Below, piece after piece: positions 1 to 32,488 of a DNA stretch of 32,488 bases. The notes under the pieces were generated by a model. That model was not told the origin of the DNA. It searched no databases and was given only the letters and a program-made list of their open reading frames with translations. Within the stretch, counting starts at the first letter, position 1. Each line of letters opens with the position of its first letter. This stretch comes from a virus (Duplodnaviria > Heunggongvirae > Uroviricota > Caudoviricetes): the IMG/VR virus record IMGVR_UViG_2778261354_000015; one strand, written 5' to 3'. Both the position numbers and the translations under genes were made by a program.

Positions 1-318
1 GTGAAAAAGATAGCTGCTATATCATTAATTAGTGTTTTTCTTATGTCTGGTTGTGCTGTGCATAATGATGAGACAAGTATCGGTAAATTTGGCCTTGCAT
101 ATAAAAGTAATATTCAGCGTAAACTTGATAACCAATACTACACCGAAGCCGAAGCTTCTTTAGCCAGGGGTAGAATATCTGGTGCAGAAAATATAGTAAA
201 AAATGATGCAACTCATTTCTGTGTTACCCAGGGCAAAAAAATGCAGATAGTTGACCTGAAGACAGAAGGTGCAGGATTACATGGCGTCGCTCGTCTGACA
301 TTCAAATGTGGAGAGTGA
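1..318 (+). CDS. yegR: Small lipoprotein (YegR-like), 105 aa, host gene flanking the prophage
   Basis: Complete ORF with signal peptide and lipobox (LMSGC). Lies on the far side of the P2 remnant from yegQ, as yegR does in E. coli K-12. Symbol from memory of the K-12 locus, not searched. Confidence 0.6.
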   Translation: MKKIAAISLISVFLMSGCAVHNDETSIGKFGLAYKSNIQRKLDNQYYTEAEASLARGRISGAENIVKNDATHFCVTQGKKMQIVDLKTEGAGLHGVARLTFKCGE

Positions 319-487
319 GAATATTTTTTGGTAAGCGTCAAACATGCGCGTTCTGGCTGTGCGTAACCGGAACCTGTGCGAGCACGATGTCGATAAGTAA
401 AAGGCATCGTGCTATGAAGGAGGATTCTATCGATGTGGTCAATGGAAGACGGTGACCAGGGATCAATCCGTATTTACAGCTTATGCA

Positions 488-515
488 TAAAAAATAAGCC
501 CGTGTAAGGGAGATT
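488..515. repeat. attL core (direct repeat copy 1)
   Basis: taaaaaataagcccgtgtaagggagatt is identical to 30955..30982. It matches the 27-bp P2 att core sequence as I remember it. Confidence 0.85.
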
Positions 516-594
516 TAGGGTGTCACCAGTAGGGGCTTTCAACGGTACAATGCGGGTTTGAGCGGCATAAATTACCACTGAAAGCCCTTAAACG

Positions 595-1608
595 TTACTC
601 TACTGTGGACACTGTGTGGACACTCTCGGCCTCAGTACCACCTCTTAGCGGATTAAGAGAAATGGCGTCCTGAAGGTACTCTGGCGCAAAATGAGCGTAA
701 ACCATAGTTTGTTCAATCCGCGTGTGACCTAGTATCCGTTGTAGCGTGATAATACTTCCTCCATTAATCATGAAATGAGTGGCAAAGCTGTGCCTTAGTG
801 CATGTGTGGCTTGCCCCATTGGCAAATCCGGTTTTATTGCTTTCATTGTTCGTCTGAAGCGAGGGTAATCAGCATCAGGGAATAAAAAACCTCGTTTGTT
901 ATCCGCGATCATTTTGGCAACAGCCTCTGAGATCGGGACGGTGCGTGGTTTGTTTGTTTTCGTTTTAACAAACGTGACGCGGTTATGGATGATATTTTCT
1001 GCTTTCAAACGAGCTGCTTCTCCCCAACGTGCTCCAGTACTCAGGCAAAGAATCGCAATCTTTTTATTGTCGCCGTCAAGAGCAGCAAGCAGTAAGGCAA
1101 TTTCTTCCTGCGTGAGATAGCCTGTGTCTGGTTTTTCCTCCTTAAGCCTTTTTGTCCCTCTGATAGGGTGCTCACCAAAGAATAACTCCGCTTCAATCAG
1201 GGCTGTAAACATGCCGCTAATACATGTTAAATCACGATTGATACTCGAAGGTTTAATACCCTGACTTCTTCGGGTGGCGCAGTACTGGCTGATAAGCGAT
1301 TTCGTAATTTGAAATGCGCATGGGTCATTCGTTATTTTTGTGAAGATTTCAATTTTTCCAAGATTAGATTTCCCATGCTCTTCGTGTTTACCCTTTAAAT
1401 CCCACCAGATCTGTGTCAGCTCCGACAGACGTCGCTTGTCTGTTGGTTTTGATAGCCATTCTTTATTGTGGTGGTTGTACAACGTGTATTTCTCGAAAGC
1501 GACAGCTTCGCTTTTCTTATCAAACTTCCTACGGATGCGTTTTCCATTACGTCCAGTAGGGCGGATGTCCACTTCATATCGACCATCATCGAGTTTTTTG
1601 ATTGCCAT
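595..1608 (-). CDS. int: Tyrosine integrase, P2 Int-like (337 aa)
   Basis: Length and sequence match P2 Int. C-terminal catalytic region has the R..H.LRH..Y arrangement (HALRHSFATH ... Y). Sits next to attL. RBS ggaggg upstream. Confidence 0.95.
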   Translation of the reverse strand: MAIKKLDDGRYEVDIRPTGRNGKRIRRKFDKKSEAVAFEKYTLYNHHNKEWLSKPTDKRRLSELTQIWWDLKGKHEEHGKSNLGKIEIFTKITNDPCAFQITKSLISQYCATRRSQGIKPSSINRDLTCISGMFTALIEAELFFGEHPIRGTKRLKEEKPDTGYLTQEEIALLLAALDGDNKKIAILCLSTGARWGEAARLKAENIIHNRVTFVKTKTNKPRTVPISEAVAKMIADNKRGFLFPDADYPRFRRTMKAIKPDLPMGQATHALRHSFATHFMINGGSIITLQRILGHTRIEQTMVYAHFAPEYLQDAISLNPLRGGTEAESVHTVSTVE

Positions 1609-1723
1609 CAGAAAACCCTCCGAGTGGTGTGTTTTTTGGCGACTACTAATCGCTTTTTTCGTGGTGGCTGAAATTTAGCCACCAATAGTAGGCACTTGTG
1701 ATGAATATATTCACGATGAATTG

Positions 1724-2023
1724 TTAACCAGTCTTTTGACCGGAGTGGGGCGACGTTGTTTCGTTTTGCCCAAAGTGTGCGAGAGCGGGCGCAATTTGCC
1801 CGGACTCAGGAGCGATCTGATTGGTCATGAACCATAAAGTGTATTTGGTGAATTGTGGGGTCTGCAGGATGTTCATCATGACATCTGTTGGAGGTGTTGA
1901 ACGACCACTTTCATAGTAACTCAGCGTGCCATACGGAACCCCTGTTAAATCAGCAAGTTGTTGTCTGCTCAAATACTCTGATTTTCGCATTAAGACTATC
2001 TTCTCGCTTATCGTGTTTGACAT
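1724..2023 (-). CDS. C: Immunity repressor C (99 aa)
   Basis: 99-aa ORF divergent from cox. Sequence matches P2 repressor C as remembered. Position between int and cox. Confidence 0.92.
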   Translation of the reverse strand: MSNTISEKIVLMRKSEYLSRQQLADLTGVPYGTLSYYESGRSTPPTDVMMNILQTPQFTKYTLWFMTNQIAPESGQIAPALAHFGQNETTSPHSGQKTG

Positions 2024-2137
2024 GGTGTTTAGATCTCAATAGTATTTAGTTTAGATGTAGATTGTTTAGTGCTTGGATGTGTGCACTAAAAGGCATTATA
2101 AGGCATTAAACGCAATTCATGAGGGCTGGAGGACGAC
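2024..2137. promoter_or_regulatory. Lysis-lysogeny switch region (divergent Pc/Pe promoters with C operators)
   Basis: Intergenic region between divergent C and cox. 8-bp direct repeats gtttagat at 2027..2034 and 2049..2056 (22 bp apart) resemble the P2 O1/O2 operator half-sites. Direct repeat aggcatta at 2091..2098 and 2101..2108. TATAAT-like hexamer on the minus strand around 2095..2100. Confidence 0.6.
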
Positions 2138-2413
2138 ATGAGCAAGCAAGTAACACTCATGACTGATGCGATTCCTTATCAGGAGTTCGCAAAACTAATA
2201 GGAAAATCGACAGGAGCGGTTCGTCGGATGATCGATAAAGGAAAGCTGCCTGTAATTGATATGACCGATCCACAATCAGCTTCAGGTCGTGCAGGTGAAT
2301 ATTGGGTATACCTTCCGGCATGGAATAACGGACTAAAACTGGCTTATGAAAGCCGCCCTAAAGAGATTCGTGACGGCTGGTTGATGTGGTTAGGTCTCGG
2401 TGAACCACGTTAA
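2138..2413 (+). CDS. cox: Cox, excisionase and early-promoter repressor (91 aa)
   Basis: Matches P2 Cox in length and sequence. First gene of the early rightward operon. Confidence 0.93.
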   Translation: MSKQVTLMTDAIPYQEFAKLIGKSTGAVRRMIDKGKLPVIDMTDPQSASGRAGEYWVYLPAWNNGLKLAYESRPKEIRDGWLMWLGLGEPR

Positions 2414-2423
2414 GGAGAACCGT

Positions 2424-2594
2424 ATGAATGAACCTCGTTGTATTGCTCAGTTACTGCGTAACGAAAGCCCCAGGGCGATTGACTTCACCATCACCCACGG
2501 TAAGGGGCGTAAGGGAATCATTATCCGCACCAAAAAACAGAGTCCGTTAAAAAAGGCTCTGACCTTTCTGAAAAGCCGGAGGGTATGGAAATGA
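2424..2594 (+). CDS. P2 orf78-like small early protein
   Basis: Start chosen at the ATG preceded by RBS aaggaga (2412..2418) rather than the upstream ATG at 2400. Conserved P2 position between cox and B. Confidence 0.7.
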   Translation: MNEPRCIAQLLRNESPRAIDFTITHGKGRKGIIIRTKKQSPLKKALTFLKSRRVWK

Positions 2595-3091
2595 CAGTGA
2601 TGACGCTCAATCTCGTTGAAAAACAGCCAGCAACTATGCGCCGGATAATTGGTAAGCATCTGGCCGTCCCTCGCTGGCAGGAGACATGCGATTATTATAA
2701 TCAGATGATGGAACGCGAACGGCTAACGGTATGCTTTCATGCGCAGTTAAAACAGCGTCACGCAACGATGCGTTTTGAAGAAATGAACGACGTCGAACGT
2801 GAACGGCTGGTTTATGCAATTGATGAATTGCGTGGGGCATTCTCAAAACGCCGTCAGGTTGGCGCAAGTGAGTATGCATATATTAGTTTTTTAACAGTCA
2901 GTCAGCGTCGTACTTTATTTATGCATGCCGGATTGACTGAAAAAGAATTCAACCAGCCATACTGGCGAATTAATGAAGAATCATGTTACTGGCGTGATGC
3001 TTTATTCCGTGCATTACGTGAATTATTCAGCCTGTTTGAGTATGCACCGACAATTCTGACGTCGGTAAAACCAGAGCAATATCTGCATTAA
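2591..3091 (+). CDS. B: Replication protein B (DnaB helicase loader-like)
   Basis: Matches P2 gpB. Start set at the ATG at 2591 (RBS ggaggg 2577..2582) rather than 2585, whose RBS spacing is too short. Confidence 0.88.
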   Translation: MTVMTLNLVEKQPATMRRIIGKHLAVPRWQETCDYYNQMMERERLTVCFHAQLKQRHATMRFEEMNDVERERLVYAIDELRGAFSKRRQVGASEYAYISFLTVSQRRTLFMHAGLTEKEFNQPYWRINEESCYWRDALFRALRELFSLFEYAPTILTSVKPEQYLH

Positions 3092-3154
3092 ATAATTAAC
3101 CAGAGTTTTTAACGCACTTAATCGTGCGGGGCTTCTTTTTGCCTGGAGAAAGTC

Positions 3155-3379
3155 ATGCATACAGTTTCTGAAAACAAGTGCGGTAAATACGCATTACTGC
3201 TGCAACAGGCCAGAGCCGAAGCACAGGCCGACGCAGCGACACGCTTTTCTTCTCATCTTGACGCCATGATTCGCCATATCACAAAGGCGGAGTTATCCCG
3301 CGTGGAGATAGTCGAGCTGCTCAGTCAGGAGTCGGAAAAATTTCACAATATCGGATTGTCTCGCGGGGAGGTGCTTTGA
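3155..3379 (+). CDS. P2 orf80-like hypothetical protein
   Basis: Conserved small ORF between B and A in P2 early-operon synteny. Confidence 0.7.
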
Positions 3380-3681
3380 TGTCCTGTTCTCATTCAGTTG
3401 TATTACTGAATAACGCCTTAAAAATCGCCGTTATGAAAAATGGTGATTTGTCTCTTATTCAACTTGGTATTGATAAAGAGAAGCGCGAAATAACTGAATC
3501 TGTTATCGCGATTTATCAGAGTGAATTAAACCTCCTGTCTGATGTGGTCAATTTACTTGTTAAACGCGCTGTATTCCACAAGCAAATTTCCTCAGTGGAT
3601 GAACTGACAAAATTAACGACAGAACTCGCCAGTTATTGCGCTGATGAATTTAAGAAGCTGAACGACAAAAGGAGCTGGTAA
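3376..3681 (+). CDS. P2 orf81-like hypothetical protein
   Basis: Start is translationally coupled to the upstream ORF stop. P2 synteny. Confidence 0.7.
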
Positions 3682-3905
3682 TGCCGGACAACGTAGATTT
3701 TATTCAGGAACAACAGGCTGAATTACTGGAGCGCCAGATTAACGCGGCAAGGGTAAAACATTGCGGTGCTTCTGCGCTGGTTTGCGAAGAGTGTGACGCG
3801 CCAATACCTGCTGCCCGTCGTGCGGCTTATCCGTCAGCCACGCGATGTGTTTCCTGTCAGTCAGTCTTTGAAGCAAAAAACAAACATTACCGGAGAACGG
3901 CATGA
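3681..3905 (+). CDS. TraR/DksA-family C4 zinc-finger protein (P2 orf82-like)
   Basis: CEEC ... CVSC four-cysteine motif near the C-terminus, typical of the phage TraR/DksA zinc-finger family. P2 synteny. Confidence 0.8.
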   Translation: MPDNVDFIQEQQAELLERQINAARVKHCGASALVCEECDAPIPAARRAAYPSATRCVSCQSVFEAKNKHYRRTA

Positions 3906-4177
3906 GTATTCGTATTGAAATTGGCGAACGTTATGTCGTTACCAGTGACAGCTTTCAGTTTATTCTCCACGAGAAAAAGAGAGCTGAAAGCGGTAAAAAC
4001 GCCGGTCAGGAATGGCTGGCGGTGGTTGGTTATTACCCGAAATTAAGCCAGCTCGTTTCCGGCCTGATGCATCACGATATTCTGACCGGAAGCGCAAAGT
4101 CTTTTGCTGATTTAAACGCGCAGGTTGAGCAACTCAGCAAGCGTTGTTCAGAGGCTTTTGGCTCATATGGCCGTTAA
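3902..4177 (+). CDS. P2 orf83-like hypothetical protein
   Basis: Conserved ORF that overlaps the start of A. P2 synteny. Confidence 0.7.
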   Translation: MSIRIEIGERYVVTSDSFQFILHEKKRAESGKNAGQEWLAVVGYYPKLSQLVSGLMHHDILTGSAKSFADLNAQVEQLSKRCSEAFGSYGR

Positions 4178-6455
4178 AGCCTCCGGGCGTTTTGTCCCTC
4201 CGTCAGCATTTGCCGCAGGCACCGGTAAGACGTTTACCGGTGCTTATGCATGGAACGCGCCACGCGAGGCTGTCGGGCGCGAAAGACCCCTTACACGTGA
4301 CGAGATGCGTCAGGTGCAAGGTGTTTTATCCACGATTAACCGCCTGCCTTACTTTTTGCGCTCGCTGTTTACTTCACGCTATGACTACATCCGGCGCAAT
4401 AAAAGCCCGGTGCACGGGTTTTATTTCCTCACATCCACTTTTCAGCGTCGTTTATGGCCGCGCATTGAGCGTGTGAATCAGCGCCATGAAATGAACACCG
4501 ACGCGTCGTTGCTGTTTCTGGCAGAGCGTGACCACTATGCGCGCCTGCCGGGAATGAATGACAAGGAGCTGAAAAAGTTTGCCGCCCGTATTTCATCGCA
4601 GCTTTTCATGATGTATGAGGAACTCAGCGATGCCTGGGTGGATGCGCATGGCGAAAAAGAATCGCTGTTTACGGATGAGGCGCAGGTTCACCTCTATGGT
4701 CATGTTGCTGGCGCTGCACGTGCTTTCAATATTTCCCCTCTCTACTGGAAAAAATACCGTAAAGGACAGATGACCACGAGGCAGGCATATTCTGCCATTG
4801 CCCGTCTGTTTAACGATGAGTGGTGGACTCATCAGCTTAAAGGCCAGCGTATGCGCTGGCATGAGGCGTTACTGATTGCTGTCGGGGAGGTGAATAAAGA
4901 CCGTTCTCCTTATGCCAGTAAACATGCCATTCGTGATGTGCGTGCACGCCGCCAGGCAAATCTGGAATTTCTTAAATCGTGTGACCTTGAAAACAGGGAA
5001 ACCGGCGAGCGCATCGACCTTATCAGTAAGGTGATGGGCAGTATTTCTAATCCTGAAATTCGCCGGATGGAGCTGATGAACACCATTGCCGGTATTGAGC
5101 GTTACGCCGCCGCAGAGGGTGATGTGGGGATGTTTATCACGCTGACCACGCCGTCAAAGTATCACCCGACACGTCAGGTCGGAAAAGGCGAAAGTAAAAC
5201 CGTCCAGCTTAATCACGGCTGGAATGATGAGGCATTTAATCCAAAGGATGCGCAGCGTTATCTCTGCCGTATCTGGAGCCTGATGCGCACGGCATTCAAG
5301 GATAATGATTTACAGGTCTACGGTTTGCGTGTCGTCGAGCCACACCACGACGGAACGCCGCACTGGCATATGATGCTTTTTTGTAATCCACGCCAGCGTA
5401 ACCAGATTATCGAAATCATGCGTCGCTATGCGCTCAAAGAGGATGGCGACGAAAGAGGAGCCGCGCGAAACCGTTTTCAGGCGAAACACCTTAACCGGGG
5501 CGGTGCTGCGGGGTATATCGCGAAATACATCTCAAAAAATATCGACGGCTATGCACTGGATGGTCAGCTCGATAATGATACCGGCAGACCGCTGAAAGAC
5601 ACTGCCGCGGCTGTTACCGCATGGGCGTCAACGTGGCGCATCCCGCAATTTAAAACGGTTGGTCTGCCGACAATGGGGGCTTACCGTGAACTACGCAAAT
5701 TGCCTCGCGGCGTCAGCATTGCTGATGAGTTTGACGAGCGCGTCGAGGCTGCACGCGCCGCCGCAGACAGTGGTGATTTTGCGTTGTATATCAGCGCGCA
5801 GGGTGGGGCAAATGTCCCGCGCGATTGTCAGACTGTCAGGGTCGCCCGTAGCCCGTCGGATGACGTTAACGAGTATGAGGAAGAAGTCGAGAGAGTGGTC
5901 GGCATTTACGCGCCGCATCTCGGCGCGCGTCATATTCATATCACCAGAACGACGGACTGGCGCATTGTGCCGAAAGTTCCGGTCGTTGAGCCTTTGACTT
6001 TAAAAAGCGGCATCGCCGCGCCTCGGAGTCCTGTCAATAACTGTGGAACGCTCACCGGTGGTGATACTTCGTTACCGGCTCCCACACCTTCTGAGCACGC
6101 CGCAGCAGTGCTTAATCTGGTAGATGACGGTGTTATCGAATGGAATGACCCGGAGGTCGTGAGGGCGCTCAGAGGTGCATTAAAACACGGCCTGAGAAGA
6201 CCAAACCGTCAGCAAAGAAACGGAAGCCCGTTAAAACCGCATGAAATAGCGCCATCGGCCAGACTGACCCGGTCGGAACGAATGCAAATTACCCGTATCC
6301 GCGTTGACCTTGCTCAGAACGGTATCAGGCCTCAGCGATGGGAGATTGAGGCGCTGGCGCGTGGGGCAACCGTGACATACGACGGACAAAAATTCACATA
6401 TCCAGATGCGGATGAGTGGTCGGGGTTTTCAACCACAATAGAGTGGAATCAATGA
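4167..6455 (+). CDS. A: Replication initiation protein A (rolling-circle nickase)
   Basis: About 760 aa, matching P2 gpA. Start set at MAVKASG (4167) rather than the ORF-track start at 4125. Contains the conserved HWHMMLF and GYIAKYISKN motifs of rolling-circle initiators. Confidence 0.93.
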   Translation: MAVKASGRFVPPSAFAAGTGKTFTGAYAWNAPREAVGRERPLTRDEMRQVQGVLSTINRLPYFLRSLFTSRYDYIRRNKSPVHGFYFLTSTFQRRLWPRIERVNQRHEMNTDASLLFLAERDHYARLPGMNDKELKKFAARISSQLFMMYEELSDAWVDAHGEKESLFTDEAQVHLYGHVAGAARAFNISPLYWKKYRKGQMTTRQAYSAIARLFNDEWWTHQLKGQRMRWHEALLIAVGEVNKDRSPYASKHAIRDVRARRQANLEFLKSCDLENRETGERIDLISKVMGSISNPEIRRMELMNTIAGIERYAAAEGDVGMFITLTTPSKYHPTRQVGKGESKTVQLNHGWNDEAFNPKDAQRYLCRIWSLMRTAFKDNDLQVYGLRVVEPHHDGTPHWHMMLFCNPRQRNQIIEIMRRYALKEDGDERGAARNRFQAKHLNRGGAAGYIAKYISKNIDGYALDGQLDNDTGRPLKDTAAAVTAWASTWRIPQFKTVGLPTMGAYRELRKLPRGVSIADEFDERVEAARAAADSGDFALYISAQGGANVPRDCQTVRVARSPSDDVNEYEEEVERVVGIYAPHLGARHIHITRTTDWRIVPKVPVVEPLTLKSGIAAPRSPVNNCGTLTGGDTSLPAPTPSEHAAAVLNLVDDGVIEWNDPEVVRALRGALKHGLRRPNRQQRNGSPLKPHEIAPSARLTRSERMQITRIRVDLAQNGIRPQRWEIEALARGATVTYDGQKFTYPDADEWSGFSTTIEWNQ

Positions 6456-6520
6456 CAAAGGTAAATCACATTAAAAACGTATCTGCTTACTTTAAGAGAT
6501 GATTTTCTCTTTAAAGCATT

Positions 6521-6549
6521 GTATGGTTGCTGGCGATATGGCATATAAT
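6521..6549 (+). promoter_or_regulatory. Candidate sigma70 promoter for cargo gene 1
   Basis: Perfect TATAAT at 6544..6549, with a weak -35 (gtatgg, 6521..6526) at 17-bp spacing. Lies in the AT-rich intergenic region upstream of 6661. Confidence 0.35.
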
Positions 6550-6660
6550 GTAGCAAAAACATGAGCTTGGTAAGAAACGATTCTGTCATAAGGCATAGTT
6601 CTGCCACTCGCTCGGTATTGATGCCATGGACATGGACTCTATTTAAATCAAGGTGCATAT

Positions 6661-7620
6661 ATGAAAATATTTATTAGTTGGTCAGGTTCGGACAGCCTAG
6701 AGATAGCGAAAGTATTACGGGATTGGATCCCTAATGTTATTCAAGTAGCTGAGCCGTACGTATCAGCAGAGGATATTGATAAAGGTACTCGCTGGGCGAC
6801 CGATATATCAAAGGAACTTGATGACTCTTCTTATGGCATTATTTGTCTTACAAAGAGTAATATTAATGCTCCTTGGATAAATTTTGAAGCAGGTGCTTTA
6901 GGTAAAAAAGTTGACAAAAGCCGAGTTAGCCCTTTCTTGTTTAAAATTAAACCATCTGAAGTAACAGGTCCAATTTTACAATTTCAGTCTACTCGCTCGG
7001 ATGATAAAAACGATATTTTGAAGTTGATGTTATCCATAAATAAACAAGCTGGATTTTTGTCTGAAGATCGCTTAACAAAAGCTTTCGAGCAGTGGTGGCC
7101 AAGTTTAGAACATGAGTTAGATAGCATTCCCGATATTAGTCCTGTAGATAAAGATTCAGCAAAACAAGCAAAAGGTAGTTCAAGTTCTGAAATACAAAAC
7201 CTTTCTAAAATTGTTGAAAACTTGCTGGATATTAGCCGAACGAATCACCAGTTATTACGTGATCCAGCATCGCTTTTGCCAGAAGAATATGTTAGTAAAA
7301 TAATAAATAGAAGTGAGCGTAAAGAAAGTACCTTAAGAACCGTAGTCTCTGATTTATCAGTTGCATATCGTTCAGCTATTCGTCTAAAAAGAAGCCTCAT
7401 GAGACATGGTCTTGATGAAGTCTCGATGGACGAATACATTGATTCACTAAATAAAATAATAGATGATTTTGCTAAACCAATCAATTACTTAGAGCGTCGC
7501 TATGGGAAGGGTAGTGCTCATATGTCAGATGCTTTACTCCATCGTTCACTTAGACCACGATCCAGAAACTTAATTGATATGATGGTTGAGGAAGATACAG
7601 AACAGGATGAAATTGTATGA
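6661..7620 (+). CDS. TIR-like domain protein with uncharacterised C-terminal domain (cargo at the P2 tin/old slot); candidate anti-phage defence protein
   Basis: 319 aa. N-terminus MKIFISWSGSD ... ICLTKSNINAPWINFEAG gives a TIR-type beta-A strand and a W-x3-E motif (E76, codon 6886..6888) like the catalytic Glu of TIR NADases. The gene looks AT-rich compared with the backbone. It occupies the slot where P2 carries orf91/tin/old. Confidence 0.65.
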   Translation: MKIFISWSGSDSLEIAKVLRDWIPNVIQVAEPYVSAEDIDKGTRWATDISKELDDSSYGIICLTKSNINAPWINFEAGALGKKVDKSRVSPFLFKIKPSEVTGPILQFQSTRSDDKNDILKLMLSINKQAGFLSEDRLTKAFEQWWPSLEHELDSIPDISPVDKDSAKQAKGSSSSEIQNLSKIVENLLDISRTNHQLLRDPASLLPEEYVSKIINRSERKESTLRTVVSDLSVAYRSAIRLKRSLMRHGLDEVSMDEYIDSLNKIIDDFAKPINYLERRYGKGSAHMSDALLHRSLRPRSRNLIDMMVEEDTEQDEIV

Positions 7621-7864
7621 TCGATTACGATTAACTACAAACAATCTGATATTATAAAATTTATCAACGCTACAGCCGCCATACTACAGCGGCTGTATAG
7701 GGCTCATAATAGGTATTTTATTGCTATCCCTCAAATCCTAAAAATTGCGGATGCTGCATGAATTCGCATGCTTGATTAACTCTAAATAATCCCCTCACTT
7801 ACGGCTTTTGCGCTGGATTCAACTCTGAATGCACCTGTATTAAAACCGACCCATGAAGCGGGCG

Positions 7865-7883
7865 GGCGAGGCGGGGAAAGCAC
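7865..7883. other. cos site (19-nt cohesive end sequence)
   Basis: ggcgaggcggggaaagcac matches the P2 cohesive-end sequence as I remember it. It sits in the expected place, between the right-end cargo and Q. Confidence 0.65.
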
Positions 7884-8026
7884 TGCGCGCTGGCGGTGGT
7901 GCTGATTTTATTTTTTCAGCGTCTGAGCGCGTCGTGATGGCGTTTAAATTGTTCGCCGGGGCCGTTGGTGTGTCTGCGGGGTGTTTTGTGCGGTGGTGAG
8001 CGTATGAGGGCGTGATGACGGGGTGT

Positions 8027-8048
8027 AAAAAAGCCGCCCGCAGGCGGC
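8027..8048 (-). terminator. Rho-independent terminator downstream of Q
   Basis: GC-rich hairpin (gccgcc / ggcggc, 8033..8048) followed on the minus strand by a run of six U (plus-strand A-run 8027..8032), immediately 3' of the Q stop at 8054. Confidence 0.7.
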
Positions 8049-8053
8049 GATGT

Positions 8054-19720: not shown

Positions 19721-21838
19721 ATGAGCACAAAATTCAGAACCGTTATCACCACTGCCGGTGCAGCAAAGCTGGCAGCGGCAACCGCGCCGGGAGGGCGGAA
19801 GGTCAACATTACCACGATGGCCGTCGGGGATGGCGGTGGTAAATTGCCTGTCCCGGATGCCGGACAGACCGGGCTTATCCACGAAGTCTGGCGACATGCG
19901 CTGAACAAAATCAGCCAGGACAAACGAAACAGTAATTATATTATCGCAGAGCTGGTTATTCCGCCGGAGGTGGGCGGTTTCTGGATGCGTGAGCTTGGCC
20001 TGTACGATGATGCTGGAACGTTAATTGCCGTGGCGAACATGGCCGAAAGTTATAAGCCAGCTCTTGCCGAAGGCTCAGGGCGTTCGCAGACCTGTCGCAT
20101 GGTCATCATCGTCAGCAGTGTGGCCTCAGTGGCGCTGACCATTGACACCACAACGGTGATGGCGACGCAGGATTACGTTGATGACAAAATTGCAGAGCAT
20201 GAACAGTCACGACGTCACCCGGACGCCTCGCTGACCGCAAAAGGTTTTACTCAGTTAAGCAATGCGACCAACAGCACGTCTGAAACACTGGCCGCAACGC
20301 CGAAAGCGGTTAAGGCCGCCTATGACCTGGCTAACGGGAAATACACTGCGCAGGATGCCACCACAGCGCGAAAAGGCCTTGTCCAGCTCAGTAGCGCCAC
20401 CAACAGCACGTCTGAAACGCTCGCCGCAACACCAAAAGCGGTAAAGGCAGCATATGACCTTGCTAACGGGAAATACACTGCACAGGACGCCACCACAGCG
20501 CGAAAAGGTCTTGTCCAGCTCAGTAGCGCCACCAACAGTGATTCTGAAACGCTGGCTGCAACACCAAAAGCGGTGAAGTCTGCCTATGACAATGCTGAAA
20601 AACGTCTTCAGAAAGATCAGAACGGTGCGGATATTCCTGATAAAGGACGCTTCCTGAGTAACATTAATGTTTACAGCAAAGGTGAAGTGGATAAGAAAAA
20701 GGGAATGCGAAAGTATTCGTTTGCAGCCCCTGCAAATGTCGTTGCCGGGAAGTGGTATCCCGTTATCTTTCGCCGTGCTGCCAGCCTTTCAGGAGAAATG
20801 GCATCCCGCGTCGTTATTTCCACTGGTTGTTATAACAGCGATTATGTAATGAATAACTGCGAGTTTAATGGCATGGTTATGCCCGGAGGCTGGACTGATC
20901 GTGGTTCATATGCGGCAGGTTATTTCTGGACGTATCAGACTAATGAGCGTTCAATTCATTCCATTGTTACAAGCCTGAAAGATGATGATGTATGTAGTGT
21001 TTTTTATGTTGAAGCCAGAGCTTTCCCTGTACAAATTCTTGCAGAGGAAGGGCTAACGGTTATTGTTCCGACAGAGGATTATGTCGTCGGTCAGACGACA
21101 TATAAGTGGGGGGCAACTAATCCCGCTACAGAAAGCACGAACGCGCAGGCTATTCTGGATTTTAAAAATGGGCGCGGTTATTACTGCTCACATCCATTTA
21201 TTTCCAGCCTTTCAGGAAATGCTGCAACAGCAACAAAGTTAGCGAACGCAAGAAATATTAATGGTGTCAGATTTGATGGCTCTGCCGATATAAATATTAA
21301 TACACTGGTTTCCAGAAACCGTGTTACTGCATTAGGTGGGAGCGTAAAGGGGACACCAGGTATTCAGATGTATGAGGCATACAACAATGGCTACCCAACA
21401 GCCTATGGTAATGTGCTTCATCTCACTGGTGTAACCGCAGTAGGAGAGGGTGAGTTACTTATTGGCTGGAGTGGAACCAGCGGTGCTCATGCTCCGGCAT
21501 ATATTCGCTCCCGACGAGATACCACAGATGCTAACTGGTCTGGATGGGCGCAACTATATACAACTGCTCATAAACCCTCAGCGGGAGATGTTGGTGCATA
21601 CACCAAAGCTGAGTCAGATTCACGTTATGTGAGAGACATGCGGCTGGGCGGTGCATCTACATATAAACCAGCAAATAATGGTATTACATGGACGCATCAG
21701 GCTCCGTCAGGTTGCGTATATACCGGCATTATTGTTCAGGATACCGGCTCAAACTCTGCCGATAACATTGGTGGCGTATATTACAGACCGGTGCAGAAAT
21801 ACATTAACGGGACATGGTATAACGTGGCGCAGGTATAA
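19721..21838 (+). CDS. H: Tail fiber protein (705 aa) with conserved N-terminus, internal fiber repeats and a divergent, lower-GC distal region
   Basis: N-terminal about 170 aa match P2 gpH. Three tandem copies of a roughly 43-aa fiber repeat follow. The distal part, from about 20640, looks AT-richer and differs from what I remember of P2 H. Confidence 0.9.
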   Translation: MSTKFRTVITTAGAAKLAAATAPGGRKVNITTMAVGDGGGKLPVPDAGQTGLIHEVWRHALNKISQDKRNSNYIIAELVIPPEVGGFWMRELGLYDDAGTLIAVANMAESYKPALAEGSGRSQTCRMVIIVSSVASVALTIDTTTVMATQDYVDDKIAEHEQSRRHPDASLTAKGFTQLSNATNSTSETLAATPKAVKAAYDLANGKYTAQDATTARKGLVQLSSATNSTSETLAATPKAVKAAYDLANGKYTAQDATTARKGLVQLSSATNSDSETLAATPKAVKSAYDNAEKRLQKDQNGADIPDKGRFLSNINVYSKGEVDKKKGMRKYSFAAPANVVAGKWYPVIFRRAASLSGEMASRVVISTGCYNSDYVMNNCEFNGMVMPGGWTDRGSYAAGYFWTYQTNERSIHSIVTSLKDDDVCSVFYVEARAFPVQILAEEGLTVIVPTEDYVVGQTTYKWGATNPATESTNAQAILDFKNGRGYYCSHPFISSLSGNAATATKLANARNINGVRFDGSADININTLVSRNRVTALGGSVKGTPGIQMYEAYNNGYPTAYGNVLHLTGVTAVGEGELLIGWSGTSGAHAPAYIRSRRDTTDANWSGWAQLYTTAHKPSAGDVGAYTKAESDSRYVRDMRLGGASTYKPANNGITWTHQAPSGCVYTGIIVQDTGSNSADNIGGVYYRPVQKYINGTWYNVAQV
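20240..20593 (+). repeat. Tandem 129-bp repeat (about 2.7 copies) inside tail fiber gene H
   Basis: Units start near 20240, 20372 and 20501. Each encodes K/GxxQLSxATNSTSETLAATPKAVKAAYDLANGKYTAQDATTAR, and the third copy is truncated and diverged. Confidence 0.85.
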
Positions 21839-21841
21839 TTT

Positions 21842-22369
21842 ATGCAGCATTTAAAAAATATTACGGCGGGTAATCCAAAAACGGTTGAACAATATCAATT
21901 GACAAAGGACTTTGATGTTGTCTGGTTTTTTTCAGAAGATGGTAAGAACTGGTACGAAGAACAAAAGTATTTTGCTGATGACACGATAAAAATAGCGTAC
22001 GACAAAGATAATATTATCCGCTATGTGGAAAAGGATGTGACAGCTATCAGACCGGATGGATTAAGTGTGGTTGAAGTGGCGGATATTACTGCTAACCGAC
22101 GGGCGGACATTTCAGGGAACTGGATGTTTAAGGATGGCAAAGTGATTAAACGCATTTATACGGCAGAGGAATTGCAGCAGCAGGCAGAAAACCGGAAAGC
22201 TAGACTTCTTGCAGATGCTGAATCCGTGATTTTGCCGCTGGAGCGCGCTGTCAGGTTGAACATGGCAACAGAGGAGGAGCGCACACGGCTGGAGGCTTGG
22301 GAACGCTACAGCGTTGTGGTCAGTCGTGTGGATCCTGCAAATCCTGAATGGCCGGAAATGCCGCAATAA
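21842..22369 (+). CDS. G: Tail fiber assembly chaperone
   Basis: 175 aa, matches P2 gpG. Immediately downstream of H. Confidence 0.92.
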
Positions 22370-22555
22370 GTTGTATGAACTCTGGTGTGAGCTTACATAT
22401 CTATGGCACAGAGTAAAGCCTAATCTGACAGTCCGCTCTGTGCCAGGAGCGGAAGTTGCCAAGAGAACTCTTGCAAAGGTATGATAACGTAGGTGCTAAA
22501 TAATCATGAACCATAATAAATTAAAGGTTTTTAAGTTAACTCTATGGCGTTTCTT

Positions 22556-22584
22556 TTGCATGATGATTTTTTATTTATTATATA
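22556..22584 (+). promoter_or_regulatory. Candidate sigma70 promoter of the cargo 2 operon
   Basis: -35 TTGCAT (22556..22561), 17-bp AT-rich spacer, -10 TATATA (22579..22584). RBS agagga at 22639..22644, 6 nt before the ATG at 22651. Confidence 0.5.
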
Positions 22585-22650
22585 AAGCTTAAATATACAT
22601 AATATTTAGCTTCATTTTTTTAGGTATTTTAAAGATTTAGAGGAATGTGA

Positions 22651-23586
22651 ATGGCTACTTATGCTTCTTATTTACCAGAATCACAAATTATCACTTTGTG
22701 CAAGGATTTCCCAGCGTTTACTGATCCTGAAAAATTAGATGGATTCATTAATCCAGAACAGTTTGGCGTGTTTTTTCATGAGTGGATTCATTTTCTTCAC
22801 AATATTTCCACAATTAATGGGTTTTCTATTTTTTGCACGCAAAACATCCTGTGGTCTAATTTTCGCTGGGCAATGGACAATCAGGATGTATGTCTTGGTT
22901 CAAATGACATGGATCCAGCACATATCGAATCAAACAAAAATTTTCTCAGTTACATTCGTTCCAATAGGAGTCTGCATAAATGTAACTTACCTTATTATGT
23001 AAAAGTAAACGACTTGTATTTTGAGGATGCAATAATCCATGACATGGAGGTTGCTGACGGTAGTGTTACATGTACATCATTAATAAAGTGTAGAATTTCT
23101 CATTCTGAAAACAAATACGATCTAGATTTAGGCGTGCTTGAAATACTTGAATCCGCAGCTTTTATGCTTGAATGTAAGTGTATTAATGCGATGAATGGCT
23201 TCCCTCAAGAGGCACCCTTTTATCCGTATCATACTATCAAAGGCTTAGCAGCGAAAATTGCTCCGTCATTAAATGATGAAGATATTATTTGTTGTATGTT
23301 AGCTTCTTTGCAATCTAATAACCCTCCCCAAGTATTATTCAATCTACTACATAAATGTGAATTATTACATTCTGATTGTAGGTATGAACATCTAGTGGCG
23401 GAGGTGAAAAAACAATTAAGCGAACAAGATCAAATAATAAGCGAGTCACTTAATCAAATAATTCAAATGATTCCTGTTGATGAACCGATGGGAAACTTTA
23501 TCAAGCTTACTCTTAACAGAATAAGTAACAATTTGAACTATAGAAAGCAAAAACCGTTTTTTGAGTTAGATATAATAAAAAAATAG
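22651..23586 (+). CDS. Uncharacterised cargo protein (311 aa) with HExxH motif; candidate defence component A
   Basis: Long ORF in an AT-rich island with a strong RBS. HEWIH at residues 43..47 (22777..22791) sits in a hydrophobic context like zincin metallopeptidase active sites. No similarity to any P2 backbone protein that I recognise. Confidence 0.6.
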   Translation: MATYASYLPESQIITLCKDFPAFTDPEKLDGFINPEQFGVFFHEWIHFLHNISTINGFSIFCTQNILWSNFRWAMDNQDVCLGSNDMDPAHIESNKNFLSYIRSNRSLHKCNLPYYVKVNDLYFEDAIIHDMEVADGSVTCTSLIKCRISHSENKYDLDLGVLEILESAAFMLECKCINAMNGFPQEAPFYPYHTIKGLAAKIAPSLNDEDIICCMLASLQSNNPPQVLFNLLHKCELLHSDCRYEHLVAEVKKQLSEQDQIISESLNQIIQMIPVDEPMGNFIKLTLNRISNNLNYRKQKPFFELDIIKK

Positions 23587-23603
23587 CAGAAAAAACTGAG
23601 TTT

Positions 23604-23993
23604 ATGAATGAAGTAATACAGAAATTCGGTGGTTGCACTATCATCCAGGTAAGACATGGAGATGATAATGAACCACAGCGTGATATTATGTATGACTTTT
23701 GCTTACCTGAAAATAATGATTCAATTTTATTTGGTTCGAAAATGCTACGCGCTTGTTTTCACTTTATATTTATTCACTTTAAACTTTCTGGTGAAATCAT
23801 GAAGACAGAAGAATTAAATATTTCGCCGCGTAATAAATGCCCATTTTATACTGTTTGCTGTGCATCAATTCGAGCTAATAATAGTAATATCTGCGCTGAA
23901 TCCCCTTGGAAATCAATGTCTATTGATGACAACAAAGGTTGTTATTATGCAGCAGCGATTAAAGCTACTAACCCACCAGTTTTGCCGGATTAA
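23604..23993 (+). CDS. Small cysteine-rich cargo protein (129 aa); candidate defence component B
   Basis: ORF 17 nt downstream of the previous gene on the same strand. Eight Cys residues, including a CC pair. The RBS is weak, so the start is uncertain. Same AT-rich island. Confidence 0.45.
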   Translation: MNEVIQKFGGCTIIQVRHGDDNEPQRDIMYDFCLPENNDSILFGSKMLRACFHFIFIHFKLSGEIMKTEELNISPRNKCPFYTVCCASIRANNSNICAESPWKSMSIDDNKGCYYAAAIKATNPPVLPD

Positions 23994-24127
23994 GAATAGT
24001 GTTCTTTCTGATAAATATAAAATATTTAAGGTCAGGTCTGCTTATCGCTCAAAGCAGACTGTCAGATTTGATAACGTTTGGGCTATGTAAACCGTCAGTT
24101 GGAAAATGAGTGAGTGCAAGTCAGGAC

Positions 24128-24155
24128 AGGCGGGCGGATTGCCCGCCTTTTCTTT
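24128..24155 (+). terminator. Rho-independent terminator closing the cargo 2 operon
   Basis: Stem aggcgggc (24128..24135), loop ggatt, stem gcccgcct (24141..24148), followed by ttttcttt. Confidence 0.75.
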
Positions 24156-24251
24156 ATCTGTTGTTTCATCCACTGACCAGCCAGGTCAAATAGCGCCTCA
24201 TGCTCTGCACAACAGAAAATAGTTGCACCCATTAACCACGGAGTTAAACGG

Positions 24252-25442
24252 ATGAGTGACTATCATCACGGCGTGCAGGTGCTGGAGATTAACGACGGCA
24301 CACGCGTCATTTCCACCGTATCCACTGCCATTGTCGGCATGGTCTGCACGGCCAGCGATGCGGATGCGGAAACCTTCCCCCTCAATAAACCTGTGCTGAT
24401 TACCAATGTGCAGAGTGCAATTGCAAAGGCCGGTAAAAAAGGCACGCTGGCGGCATCGTTGCAGGCCATCGCTGACCAGTCAAAACCGGTCACCGTTGTC
24501 GTGCGCGTGGAAGACGGCACCGGTGATGACGAGGAAACGAAACTCGCGCAGACCGTTTCCAATATTATCGGCACCACTGACGAAAACGGTCAGTACACCG
24601 GACTGAAAGCCCTGCTGGCGGCGGAGTCGGTAACCGGTGTTAAACCGCGTATTCTTGGTGTGCCGGGGCTGGATACCAAAGAGGTGGCTGTTGCACTGGC
24701 ATCAGTCTGTCAGAAGCTGCGCGCTTTCGGATATATCAGCGCATGGGGCTGTAAGACCATTTCCGAGGTGAAAGCCTACCGCCAGAATTTCAGCCAGCGT
24801 GAGCTGATGGTCATCTGGCCGGATTTCCTCGCATGGGATACGGTCACCAGTACCACCGCCACCGCGCATGCCACCGCCCGTGCGCTGGGTCTGCGCGCTA
24901 AAATCGACCAGGAGCAGGGCTGGCATAAAACGCTGTCCAACGTTGGGGTAAACGGTGTTACCGGCATCAGCGCATCTGTATTCTGGGATTTGCAGGAGTC
25001 CGGCACCGATGCTGACCTGCTTAACGAGTCAGGCGTCACTACGCTGATTCGCCGTGACGGTTTCCGCTTCTGGGGTAACCGTACCTGCTCTGATGACCCG
25101 CTGTTCCTCTTTGAAAACTACACCCGCACCGCGCAGGTGCTGGCCGACACGATGGCTGAGGCGCACATGTGGGCGGTGGACAAGCCCATCACCGCAACGC
25201 TGATTCGCGACATCGTTGACGGCATCAATGCCAAATTCCGTGAGCTGAAAACAAACGGCTATATCGTGGATGCGACCTGCTGGTTCAGCGAAGAATCCAA
25301 CGATGCGGAAACCCTCAAGGCCGGAAAACTGTATATCGACTACGACTATACCCCGGTGCCTCCTCTCGAAAACCTGACCCTGCGCCAGCGTATTACCGAT
25401 AAATACCTGGCAAATCTGGTCACCTCGGTTAACAGCAATTAA
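24252..25442 (+). CDS. FI: Tail sheath protein
   Basis: 396 aa, matches P2 gpFI. Confidence 0.95.
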   Translation: MSDYHHGVQVLEINDGTRVISTVSTAIVGMVCTASDADAETFPLNKPVLITNVQSAIAKAGKKGTLAASLQAIADQSKPVTVVVRVEDGTGDDEETKLAQTVSNIIGTTDENGQYTGLKALLAAESVTGVKPRILGVPGLDTKEVAVALASVCQKLRAFGYISAWGCKTISEVKAYRQNFSQRELMVIWPDFLAWDTVTSTTATAHATARALGLRAKIDQEQGWHKTLSNVGVNGVTGISASVFWDLQESGTDADLLNESGVTTLIRRDGFRFWGNRTCSDDPLFLFENYTRTAQVLADTMAEAHMWAVDKPITATLIRDIVDGINAKFRELKTNGYIVDATCWFSEESNDAETLKAGKLYIDYDYTPVPPLENLTLRQRITDKYLANLVTSVNSN

Positions 25443-31126: not shown

Positions 31127-32488
31127 TCACTTACCGTGGGGGTTACGCGTGGTTTCCCCGGAGAAATTACGCATCAGCAGCGCGTAATTTAGCTCAAGAT
31201 CCTGCGGCACCGGGAGCCACACAGTATAACCATCGCCTGGTGCGACCGGCATTGCTTCACCTTTGGCGTTTTCCATGTGCTCAAGGGTAAAGTTAATGTT
31301 GCCTTGCGGCGTCATCAGCTCAAGGCTGTCGCCAACGGAGAATTTATTTTTCACCGCTACCGCCGCGAGCTCCCCCTTGCGCTTACCGGTAAACTCACCA
31401 ACAAACTGCTGACGGTCAGAAACCGAATAACCGTATTCGTAGTTCTGATAATCGTCGTGGGTATGACGACGCAGGAAACCTTCGGTATAGCCACGATGCG
31501 CCAGACCTTCCAGAGTTTCCAGCAGGCTGGTATCGAACGGTTTGCCCGCAGCGGCGTCATCGATAGCTTTACGGTAAACCTGCGCGGTGCGTGCGCAATA
31601 GTAGAAAGATTTGGTACGGCCTTCGATTTTCAGCGAATGCACGCCCATTTTGGTCAGGCGTTCAACATGGGCGATGGCGCGCAGATCTTTCGAGTTCATG
31701 ATGTAAGTGCCGTGCTCATCTTCAAACGCGGTCATATACTCGCCCGGACGCTGGGCTTCTTCGATCATAAACACTTTGTCGGTTGGCGCGCCGATACCCA
31801 GCGTCGGCTCAACATTTTGCACCGGAATCGGCTCGTACTTGTGTACGATGTTGCCGACGTCATCTTCTTTCCCTTCCTGGACGTTATACTCCCAGCGGCA
31901 GGCGTTGGTGCAGGTGCCCTGGTTCGGGTCGCGCTTGTTGATATAGCCAGAGAGCAGGCAGCGACCGGAGTAGGCCATGCACAGCGCGCCGTGAACGAAG
32001 ATTTCGATCTCCATATCCGGTACCTGATTGCGGATCTCTGCAATCTCTTCCAGTGACAGTTCGCGAGAGAGGATCACGCGGGTTAGACCCATTTGCTGCC
32101 AGAATTTTACCGTCGCCCAGTTTACGGCGTTAGCCTGTACCGAGAGGTGGATTGGCATTTCCGGGAAGTGCTCACGCACCAGCATAATCAGCCCTGGATC
32201 GGACATAATCAGCGCATCCGGCCCCATTTCCACCACCGGTTTCAGGTCACGGATAAAGGTTTTCAGCTTGGCGTTGTGCGGTGCAATGTTGACCACGACA
32301 TAAAACTTTTTCCCCAGCGCGTGGGCTTCATTGATGCCGAGCTGAAGATTTTCGTGGTTGAATTCGTTGTTGCGCACACGCAGGGAGTAACGCGGCTGGC
32401 CCGCATAAACAGCATCTGCGCCATAAGCGAAAGCGTAACGCATATTTTTCAGCGTTCCCGCCGGGGAAAGGAGTTCCGGTTTAAACAT
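31127..32488 (-). CDS. yegQ: U32-family peptidase-like protein YegQ (RlhA), 453 aa, host gene
   Basis: Complete 453-aa ORF on the minus strand; sequence and length match E. coli YegQ from memory. Neighbour of cyaR and the P2 attachment locus in E. coli. Confidence 0.8.
   Translation of the reverse strand: MFKPELLSPAGTLKNMRYAFAYGADAVYAGQPRYSLRVRNNEFNHENLQLGINEAHALGKKFYVVVNIAPHNAKLKTFIRDLKPVVEMGPDALIMSDPGLIMLVREHFPEMPIHLSVQANAVNWATVKFWQQMGLTRVILSRELSLEEIAEIRNQVPDMEIEIFVHGALCMAYSGRCLLSGYINKRDPNQGTCTNACRWEYNVQEGKEDDVGNIVHKYEPIPVQNVEPTLGIGAPTDKVFMIEEAQRPGEYMTAFEDEHGTYIMNSKDLRAIAHVERLTKMGVHSLKIEGRTKSFYYCARTAQVYRKAIDDAAAGKPFDTSLLETLEGLAHRGYTEGFLRRHTHDDYQNYEYGYSVSDRQQFVGEFTGKRKGELAAVAVKNKFSVGDSLELMTPQGNINFTLEHMENAKGEAMPVAPGDGYTVWLPVPQDLELNYALLMRNFSGETTRNPHGK

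Follow-up and report, generated by a model that had tools for sequence, protein, structure and literature searches.

Which genes occupy the slot that separates gene G (tail-fibre assembly) from gene FI (sheath) in a P2-like prophage, and is anti-phage defence their role? The question is raised by a 32,488-nucleotide stretch of DNA, IMG/VR virus record IMGVR_UViG_2778261354_000015, which was analysed at its full length and is referred to below as the window. The window carries a P2-like prophage in which G ends at position 22369 and FI starts at 24252. The interval corresponds to the Z/fun slot of P2, or P2 defence hotspot #2, in which fun and three PD systems have been documented (Vassallo et al. 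2022, PMC9519451). An earlier inspection of the sequence, hereafter the original prediction, saw in this slot an AT-rich operon of two genes with its own promoter, ribosome binding site and terminator, coding for a protein with an HExxH motif and a small cysteine-rich protein, and proposed it as a candidate anti-phage system.

Our main finding is that positions 22651..23993 of the window hold not two genes but one, which encodes a protein of 447 amino acids (aa) and is cut in two by the deletion of a single nucleotide (nt) in a run of eight adenines (A8). The protein belongs to an undescribed and widespread family, for which neither curated families nor solved structures offer a detectable relative. 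We consider it probable, at roughly 0.6, that the island is a single-gene, promoter-bearing cassette whose product is soluble, cytoplasmic and about 51 kDa in size, that this product is a single-protein anti-phage metallohydrolase, and that the copy in the window is likely inactive.

A gene interrupted at a run of adenines

The two open reading frames (ORFs) of the original prediction do exist on the plus strand, with lengths of 311 and 129 aa, and the second does encode eight cysteines. They are not separate cistrons, however: a change from A8 to A7 splits one gene, and what had been read as an HExxH protein with a small cysteine-rich partner are the N-terminal and C-terminal parts of the same protein. 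The listed ORF2 (23604..23993) opens at an internal ATG, and its frame runs further upstream, up to the A run. Compared with residues 1 to 311 of the intact 447-aa protein WP_000257039.1, ORF1 shows a single substitution (T140 in the window, I in the intact allele). On the 441 positions of profile phrog_15354, of which the intact protein is a member, ORF1 occupies positions 1 to 311 (E 1e-201) and ORF2 positions 319 to 440 (E 3e-62); PHROGs assigns neither function nor category to this entry, so membership says nothing on the role of the protein. At the nucleotide level, genome NZ_CP027325, in which the intact 447-aa coding sequence (CDS) is annotated, differs from the window across the 1882-bp island by the 1-nt deletion and one substitution.

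The longer allele is also by far the more frequent. The run is A8 in 11 of the 13 complete E. coli genomes that bear the cargo, and in all four viral (IMG/VR) contigs with close copies. Ten of these 13 genomes match over 1883 nt and have one annotated CDS, while strains MS1679 and GPEC1054 have a span of 1882 nt and two CDSs, that is, the A7 form; the 13th, E. coli H3, is matched over 87% of the query and has the longer, A8 form. In a collection of 15 billion proteins, the exact intact protein is found on 936 contigs, ORF2 on 15, and the ORF1 of the window on one. Homologues give the same picture: the close homologue clusters (n = 36) are all 440 to 494 aa long and cover 97 to 100% of the intact protein, and the best 150 of the 1029 clusters recovered by a family profile search (described below) are mostly 440 to 540 aa long with one full-length match, about a dozen being shorter with partial coverage of the profile.

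A genuine two-component system, in which an HExxH enzyme and a separate small cysteine-rich partner are made from two cistrons, is hardly tenable in view of these data. Both ORFs are open in the window, RefSeq annotates two proteins in MS1679 and GPEC1054, and the ATG of ORF2 lies 17 nt after the stop of ORF1, at which distance coupled re-initiation is conceivable. The split nevertheless hinges on the loss of one nucleotide from a run that is A8, with a single CDS, in most carriers. Moreover, no conserved two-gene pair was seen among the homologues examined, distant members do not conserve the internal Met at which ORF2 starts, and the full chain is modelled as one confident unit (see below). 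Two components are thus refuted as the ancestral architecture. Since ORF1 and ORF2 are halves of one protein, their co-occurrence in other genomes, which the original prediction proposed to examine, is not meaningful as a test.

Is the deletion itself real? The alternative is that the frameshift arose in sequencing or assembly, as an error at the homopolymer, and that the window truly encodes the intact protein, which we regard as unlikely but as the most serious of the competing explanations. The sole lesion is one A missing from an A8 run, a classic site of error, and there is no further decay downstream, with one other substitution in 1882 bp. On the other hand, the A7 form was seen again in two complete genomes and on 15 contigs, and the haplotypes that bear it are of two slightly different kinds (the window and MS1679 differ at three positions). 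This recurrence could equally be real slippage or repeated error: either process, acting recurrently, would fit the two haplotypes as well as the other.

Taking A7 as a true allele, the copy in the window is probably a non-functional minority form, as judged from its sequence. The premature stop parts the HExxH motif and E167 from the invariant H376 and four-cysteine (Cys4) module of what is predicted to be one compact fold, so that activity has probably been lost. Residual function may persist via re-initiation at 23604 and assembly of the two fragments, or via rare transcriptional slippage. Designed phase variation at the A run was also considered; this candidate was rejected, as conservation of the run does not reach past close relatives.

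A protein family with an HExxH motif and four invariant cysteines

To define the family, 1.84 billion representative sequences were searched with the family profile at E<=1e-3, which yielded the 1029 clusters (at 50% identity) mentioned above. An alignment of 163 full-length members, whose identity to the E. coli protein has a median of 23% and a minimum of 17%, reveals a set of conserved positions. HExxH is found in 162 of the 163 sequences; the HEWIH pointed out by the original prediction in the 311-aa ORF corresponds to residues 43 to 47, of which H43 and E44 are invariant. Conservation is likewise 100% for Y193, R298, C397, C403, C415 and C431, 99% for H47, N51, E167, P192, P419 and W420, 97% for T54 and H376, and 90% for C329. 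A separate alignment of 150 sequences gave a closely similar set. Some distant members (P0102, P0132 and P0078) are extended at the C terminus by a DUF2934 segment of about 30 residues, which the E. coli protein does not have.

AlphaFold2 models the full chain with a pLDDT of 92.4 and a pTM of 0.92. In the model, HExxH lies in helix 35-53, E167 lies in helix 162-180, right after a five-stranded sheet, and the cysteines are in the last 50 residues. With a pI of 5.3, the intact protein of about 51 kDa is acidic, and it has neither a signal peptide nor a hydrophobic segment of transmembrane strength.

Searches for known relatives were negative. Scans against Pfam, NCBIfam and PADLOC, run with the two ORFs and with ten distant members, returned no family apart from that DUF2934 segment. 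The comparison with PADLOC that the original prediction had called for gave no hit at E<=1 for either ORF in PADLOC-DB 2.0.0 (5027 models), and the ten distant members gave one match to PADLOC at chance level (E 0.022). No P2 structural or lysis protein was matched either, in agreement with the initial impression that the ORFs belong to no known defence family and are no P2 proteins. Searches of PDB sequences with the single protein and with two profiles found only chance coiled-coil matches, and a fold search with the AlphaFold model found no relative in PDB or in BFVD.

The suggestion of a zinc metallopeptidase-like site holds in part. The HExxH motif is conserved and helical, and the arrangement recalls the gluzincins, in which HExxH is combined with a downstream Glu ligand (thermolysin, M1 and M48 clans): the motif is inside helix 35-53, the invariant E167, a candidate for the third ligand, sits in a later helix (162-180) within the motif G-x-x-E-I-x-E-S-x-A, and the invariant Tyr, Arg and His residues are candidates for stabilising a transition state. 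Likeness in fold or profile to a known peptidase family was looked for and not found. As neither a peptidase family nor a peptidase fold was recovered, 'metallohydrolase' is a safer wording than peptidase; not every HExxH hydrolase is a peptidase.

The closest precedent, taken here as the working model, is Lit of prophage e14, a zinc metalloprotease that cleaves EF-Tu when the Gol peptide of T4 appears, and thereby a case of abortive infection. Both Lit (Peptidase_U49) and the protein studied here are prophage-encoded single proteins with an essential-looking HExxH. They differ in other respects: there is no Pfam match, and hhalign assigns a probability of 0.2% to a relation between the family profile and E. 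coli K-12 Lit; Lit has 297 aa against 447; and the present family adds the invariant Cys4 module and a fold without solved relative. Other cargos of the G-FI slot share with this one the insertion point, the inverted repeats and the downstream backbone terminator. Their proteins are not related to it: hhalign gives 0.13% for the 181-aa slot occupant of the P2 record and 0.07% for ORF1 of the P2-EC67 cargo. As for the PD systems of the slot, the protein has no match in PADLOC, which includes the PD-T4, PD-T7 and PD-Lambda models.

Homologue neighbourhoods and a possible role in defence

Eighteen genomic contexts of homologues were inspected by eye. Recognised or candidate defence genes lie nearby in ten of them, five more are cargo of mobile elements, and three are uninformative. 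The gene is solitary in every context, and an all-against-all BLAST of upstream and downstream ORFs revealed no conserved neighbour gene. The recognised neighbours are of the CBASS, Gabija-like, retron-like, Shedu, Wadjet-like, Lamassu-like, ApeA and DUF4062 types.

Among the contexts with a named host, the Sodalis homologue is inside an integrative and conjugative element (ICE), beside an insertion sequence (IS) element and an ApeA-HEPN gene. Those of Enterobacter and Paraburkholderia are both beside a reverse transcriptase and an AAA_15/SMC ATPase, with an E2/E1/JAB fusion gene downstream in Paraburkholderia. The Cupriavidus copy lies between Shedu and an Avs-like/PDC-M54A NTPase, the Rhodoferax copy between MksBEF and an HNH effector-like gene with pPIWI_RE, and a Pseudomonas copy beside LmuA-like and caspase-like genes. 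Other homologues are found beside CBASS type III and JetD; beside PDC-S39; downstream of ANT, Toprim and DUF927 genes, adjoining a Gabija-like pair and a RES protein; and next to fis/dusB, with a DUF5906 gene and a series of unannotated ORFs upstream. Mobile elements are represented by a Tn7-like element in Rheinheimera, a TniQ-bearing element in Azovibrio, and an integrase island next to tgt/queA in Pseudomonas migulae. On IMG/VR contig L032, a homologue of 29% identity (3971..5356) begins 13 nt downstream of a DUF4062 gene (2906..3958), the only case seen of a tightly abutting upstream gene. A 2026 preprint reports DUF4062 as a defence family.

Taken together, these neighbourhoods, judged by inspection, constitute strong, if qualitative, guilt by association; they point to defence and agree with the proposal of a candidate anti-phage gene in the slot. 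In favour of the same role, the slot is a documented defence hotspot, and the prophage has a TIR-TM gene in its other hotspot (see below). Candidate defence genes in P2 hotspots are an established pattern, with thousands predicted; the present case joins it as one gene, the two-gene system being rejected.

Two other roles for a prophage cargo have to be weighed against defence. The first is lysogenic conversion or host fitness, for instance through a virulence- or stress-related hydrolase that benefits the host and has no part in defence. The depositors of P2-EC67 label its slot cargo 'putative lysogenic conversion protein', the E. coli carriers of the present gene include human clinical and avian/chicken isolates, and three of the homologue contexts are plain chromosomal or uninformative. 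This role is nonetheless improbable, as homologues of environmental Betaproteobacteria and Gammaproteobacteria directly adjoin recognised defence systems, and nothing in the protein hints at export, signal peptide and transmembrane segment both being absent. Marginally more improbable still is a factor of counter-defence or of competition between elements, whose task would be to break down immune proteins of the host or parts of rival elements and not to protect the cell. A protease-like motif would fit such a task, and mobile elements are consistent carriers of the gene, namely prophages (P2-like and lambdoid), Tn7-like elements, an ICE and integrase islands. Yet several copies are in chromosomal defence islands, and the slot houses prophage-expressed defence genes (fun and the three PD systems) at what appears to be a lysogen-expressed position between late operons and not in an early-injected region. 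A protein of 447 aa is also far larger than typical anti-defence proteins.

If the intact protein is a defence factor, it may act as follows. It would be made from the prophage as a single-protein anti-phage immunity factor. H43, H47 and E167 would bind a catalytic metal in the gluzincin manner, with E44 as general base, and Y193, R298 and H376 would assist catalysis. The four C-terminal cysteines may bind a second metal, as a structural zinc or an Fe-S cluster, and so help in sensing or stability. A signal from a competing phage would activate the enzyme, which would then cleave a host or phage macromolecule and bring about abortive infection, as Lit does. The A7 allele would detach H376 and the Cys4 module from the catalytic part.

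A fuller proposal is tentative, and we would not yet rely on it: that the intact gene founds a new family of single-protein anti-phage systems, with a zincin-like HExxH-Glu centre, a Cys4 metal module and a fold without solved relative, which cleave a host or phage target and so abort the infection, and which move as an inverted-repeat cassette between P2-like and lambdoid prophages and more widely via Tn7-like elements, ICEs and defence islands of Gammaproteobacteria and Betaproteobacteria.

Several points weigh against our interpretation. The A7 tract could be a homopolymer sequencing error instead of a real allele. The association with defence comes from 18 contexts, three of which are plain chromosomal or uninformative. 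The closeness of H43, H47 and E167, and that of the four cysteines, is presumed. Fold searches gave no zincin peptidase above background, and the peptidase assignment is drawn from motifs alone. Finally, when accession numbers and the motif string were sought in Vassallo 2022, Rousset 2022, the 2026 P2/P4 preprint, DefensePredictor and a language-model screen, no mention of the family was found.

The slot, its mobile cassette and the surrounding prophage

The features of the island are collected in Table 1. Both of its boundaries as first given, the stop of G and the start of FI, were verified, and its AT-rich character was evident from the base composition: GC is 0.32-0.35 across 22401-24000, and the cargo proper (1577 bp) has a GC of 0.328, compared with 0.555 and 0.559 in the flanking late regions. 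The cargo lies between G and FI and is flanked by the inverted repeats of the slot, which is the Z/fun position of P2; these repeats and the published description of the hotspot both agree with the location originally proposed. The query finds matches in 1324 E. coli genomes, nearly all via the conserved slot flanks, and no more than 13 of them carry this cargo; in others the slot is filled by restriction endonuclease, DUF4145, SMEK or other genes. No Rfam family was matched in the island.

Table 1. Features of the G-FI island, in positions of the window
Feature	Position	Strand	Remarks
Left flank of the P2 Z/fun slot	22370..22458	+	Near-perfect alignment with the P2-EC67 Z-region record AJ512685, which holds another cargo
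Left inverted repeat	22422..22453	+	Imperfect repeat pair I1; annotated 'left inverted repeat' in AJ512685
Cassette also found outside P2	~22434..24060	+	99.4% identity in a lambdoid prophage of E. coli H3 (L024 6001..7631), A8 allele
Best sigma-70-like promoter candidate, TTGCCA-18-TATGAT	22456..22485	+	10/12 in consensus scan; sequence kept in the H3 copy
Variable cargo of the slot	22459..24035	+	P2-EC67 homology ends at 22458 and restarts at 24036
Promoter candidate of the original prediction, TTGCAT-17-TATATA	22556..22584	+	7/12; read from the sequence, not reported by the consensus scan
Shine-Dalgarno GAGGAA	22640..22645	+	Read from the sequence; its end is 5 nt upstream of the start codon at 22651
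N-terminal 311 codons of the interrupted gene (ORF1)	22651..23586	+	H43-E44-x-x-H47, N51, E167, Y193, R298; premature TAG at 23584..23586
A7 homopolymer, frameshift site	23577..23583	+	A8 in intact alleles; TAG directly after A7
C-terminal part of the interrupted gene	23583..23993	+	+2 frame; H376, C397, C403, C415, C431
Right inverted repeat	24037..24068	+	Repeat pair I1; annotated 'right inverted repeat' at the corresponding place in AJ512685
Intrinsic-terminator-like hairpin and T run	24128..24155	+	Identical hairpin in P2-EC67, 3' of a different cargo

The expression signals proposed for a self-contained operon fared unevenly. The ribosome binding site is present, in the form of a Shine-Dalgarno sequence. 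The claim of a near-consensus sigma-70 promoter is weak, the site in question scoring lower than another candidate upstream; moreover, promoter-like sites are no commoner in the region than in shuffled sequences (six found, 7.5 expected). The hairpin and T run of the terminator are there, but since P2-EC67 has an identical hairpin with another cargo, the terminator is part of the P2 backbone and not the island's own.

The cassette is not confined to P2-like prophages. In E. coli H3 it sits between a DUF2254 gene and hokD/DUF968/RusA/Q, a context also seen in IMG/VR contig L028, and its homology to the window stops within the inner portion of the inverted repeat on either side, an indication that the repeats delimit a unit exchanged between P2-like and lambdoid prophages. 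Hosts of the family named so far are Gammaproteobacteria and Betaproteobacteria (Escherichia, Salmonella, Yersinia, Sodalis, Serratia, Enterobacter, Aeromonas, Rheinheimera, Pseudomonas, Paraburkholderia, Cupriavidus, Rhodoferax and Azovibrio), and Odoribacter gave a weak, partial match. The GC of the gene is 0.33-0.37 in every host examined (loci L004, L005, L006, L008, L011 and L012, including Sodalis, Aeromonas, Enterobacter and Serratia). Such an AT-rich gene in every examined host fits recent horizontal spread with a foreign base composition. The prophage of NZ_CP027325 (locus L001) shows the reverse of the window: its cargo gene is intact, while its tail-fibre gene is frameshifted and its tape-measure gene has an internal stop (152..2469 and 7082..7883).

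Elsewhere in the window, the other P2 hotspot, at the old/tin position between gpA-like and gpQ-like genes, is also occupied: an AT-rich gap (6456..8053) contains a gene for a 319-aa protein (6661..7620, plus strand) that matches TIR-TM of PADLOC (E 1e-117) and TIR_2 of Pfam. The gene for tail-fibre protein H (19721..21838, plus strand) contains near-identical tandem segments (KGLVQLSSATNSTSETLAATPKAVKAAYDLANGKYTAQDATTAR, repeated), and its GC falls towards the 3' end. An integrase gene (595..1608, minus strand) lies near the left end, and a Peptidase_U32 gene (31127..32488, minus strand), presumably one of the host, extends to the right end; the boundaries of the prophage thus appear to be inside the window.

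These observations bear first on how such loci are read, as one homopolymer indel can mimic a two-component system starting from a single gene. The A7 and A8 alleles provide, in turn, a natural loss-of-function control. The presence of the same cassette in P2-like and lambdoid prophages, with its edges in inverted repeats, makes it a case for studying how hotspot cargo is swapped. If the intact allele protects, the family would be a widespread defence family (>1000 clusters at 50% identity) that was missed by Pfam, NCBIfam, PADLOC and the machine-learning screens of the papers searched; and if the proposed mechanism is true, it would be the second kind of HExxH-based abortive-infection enzyme after Lit, built on an unrelated fold.

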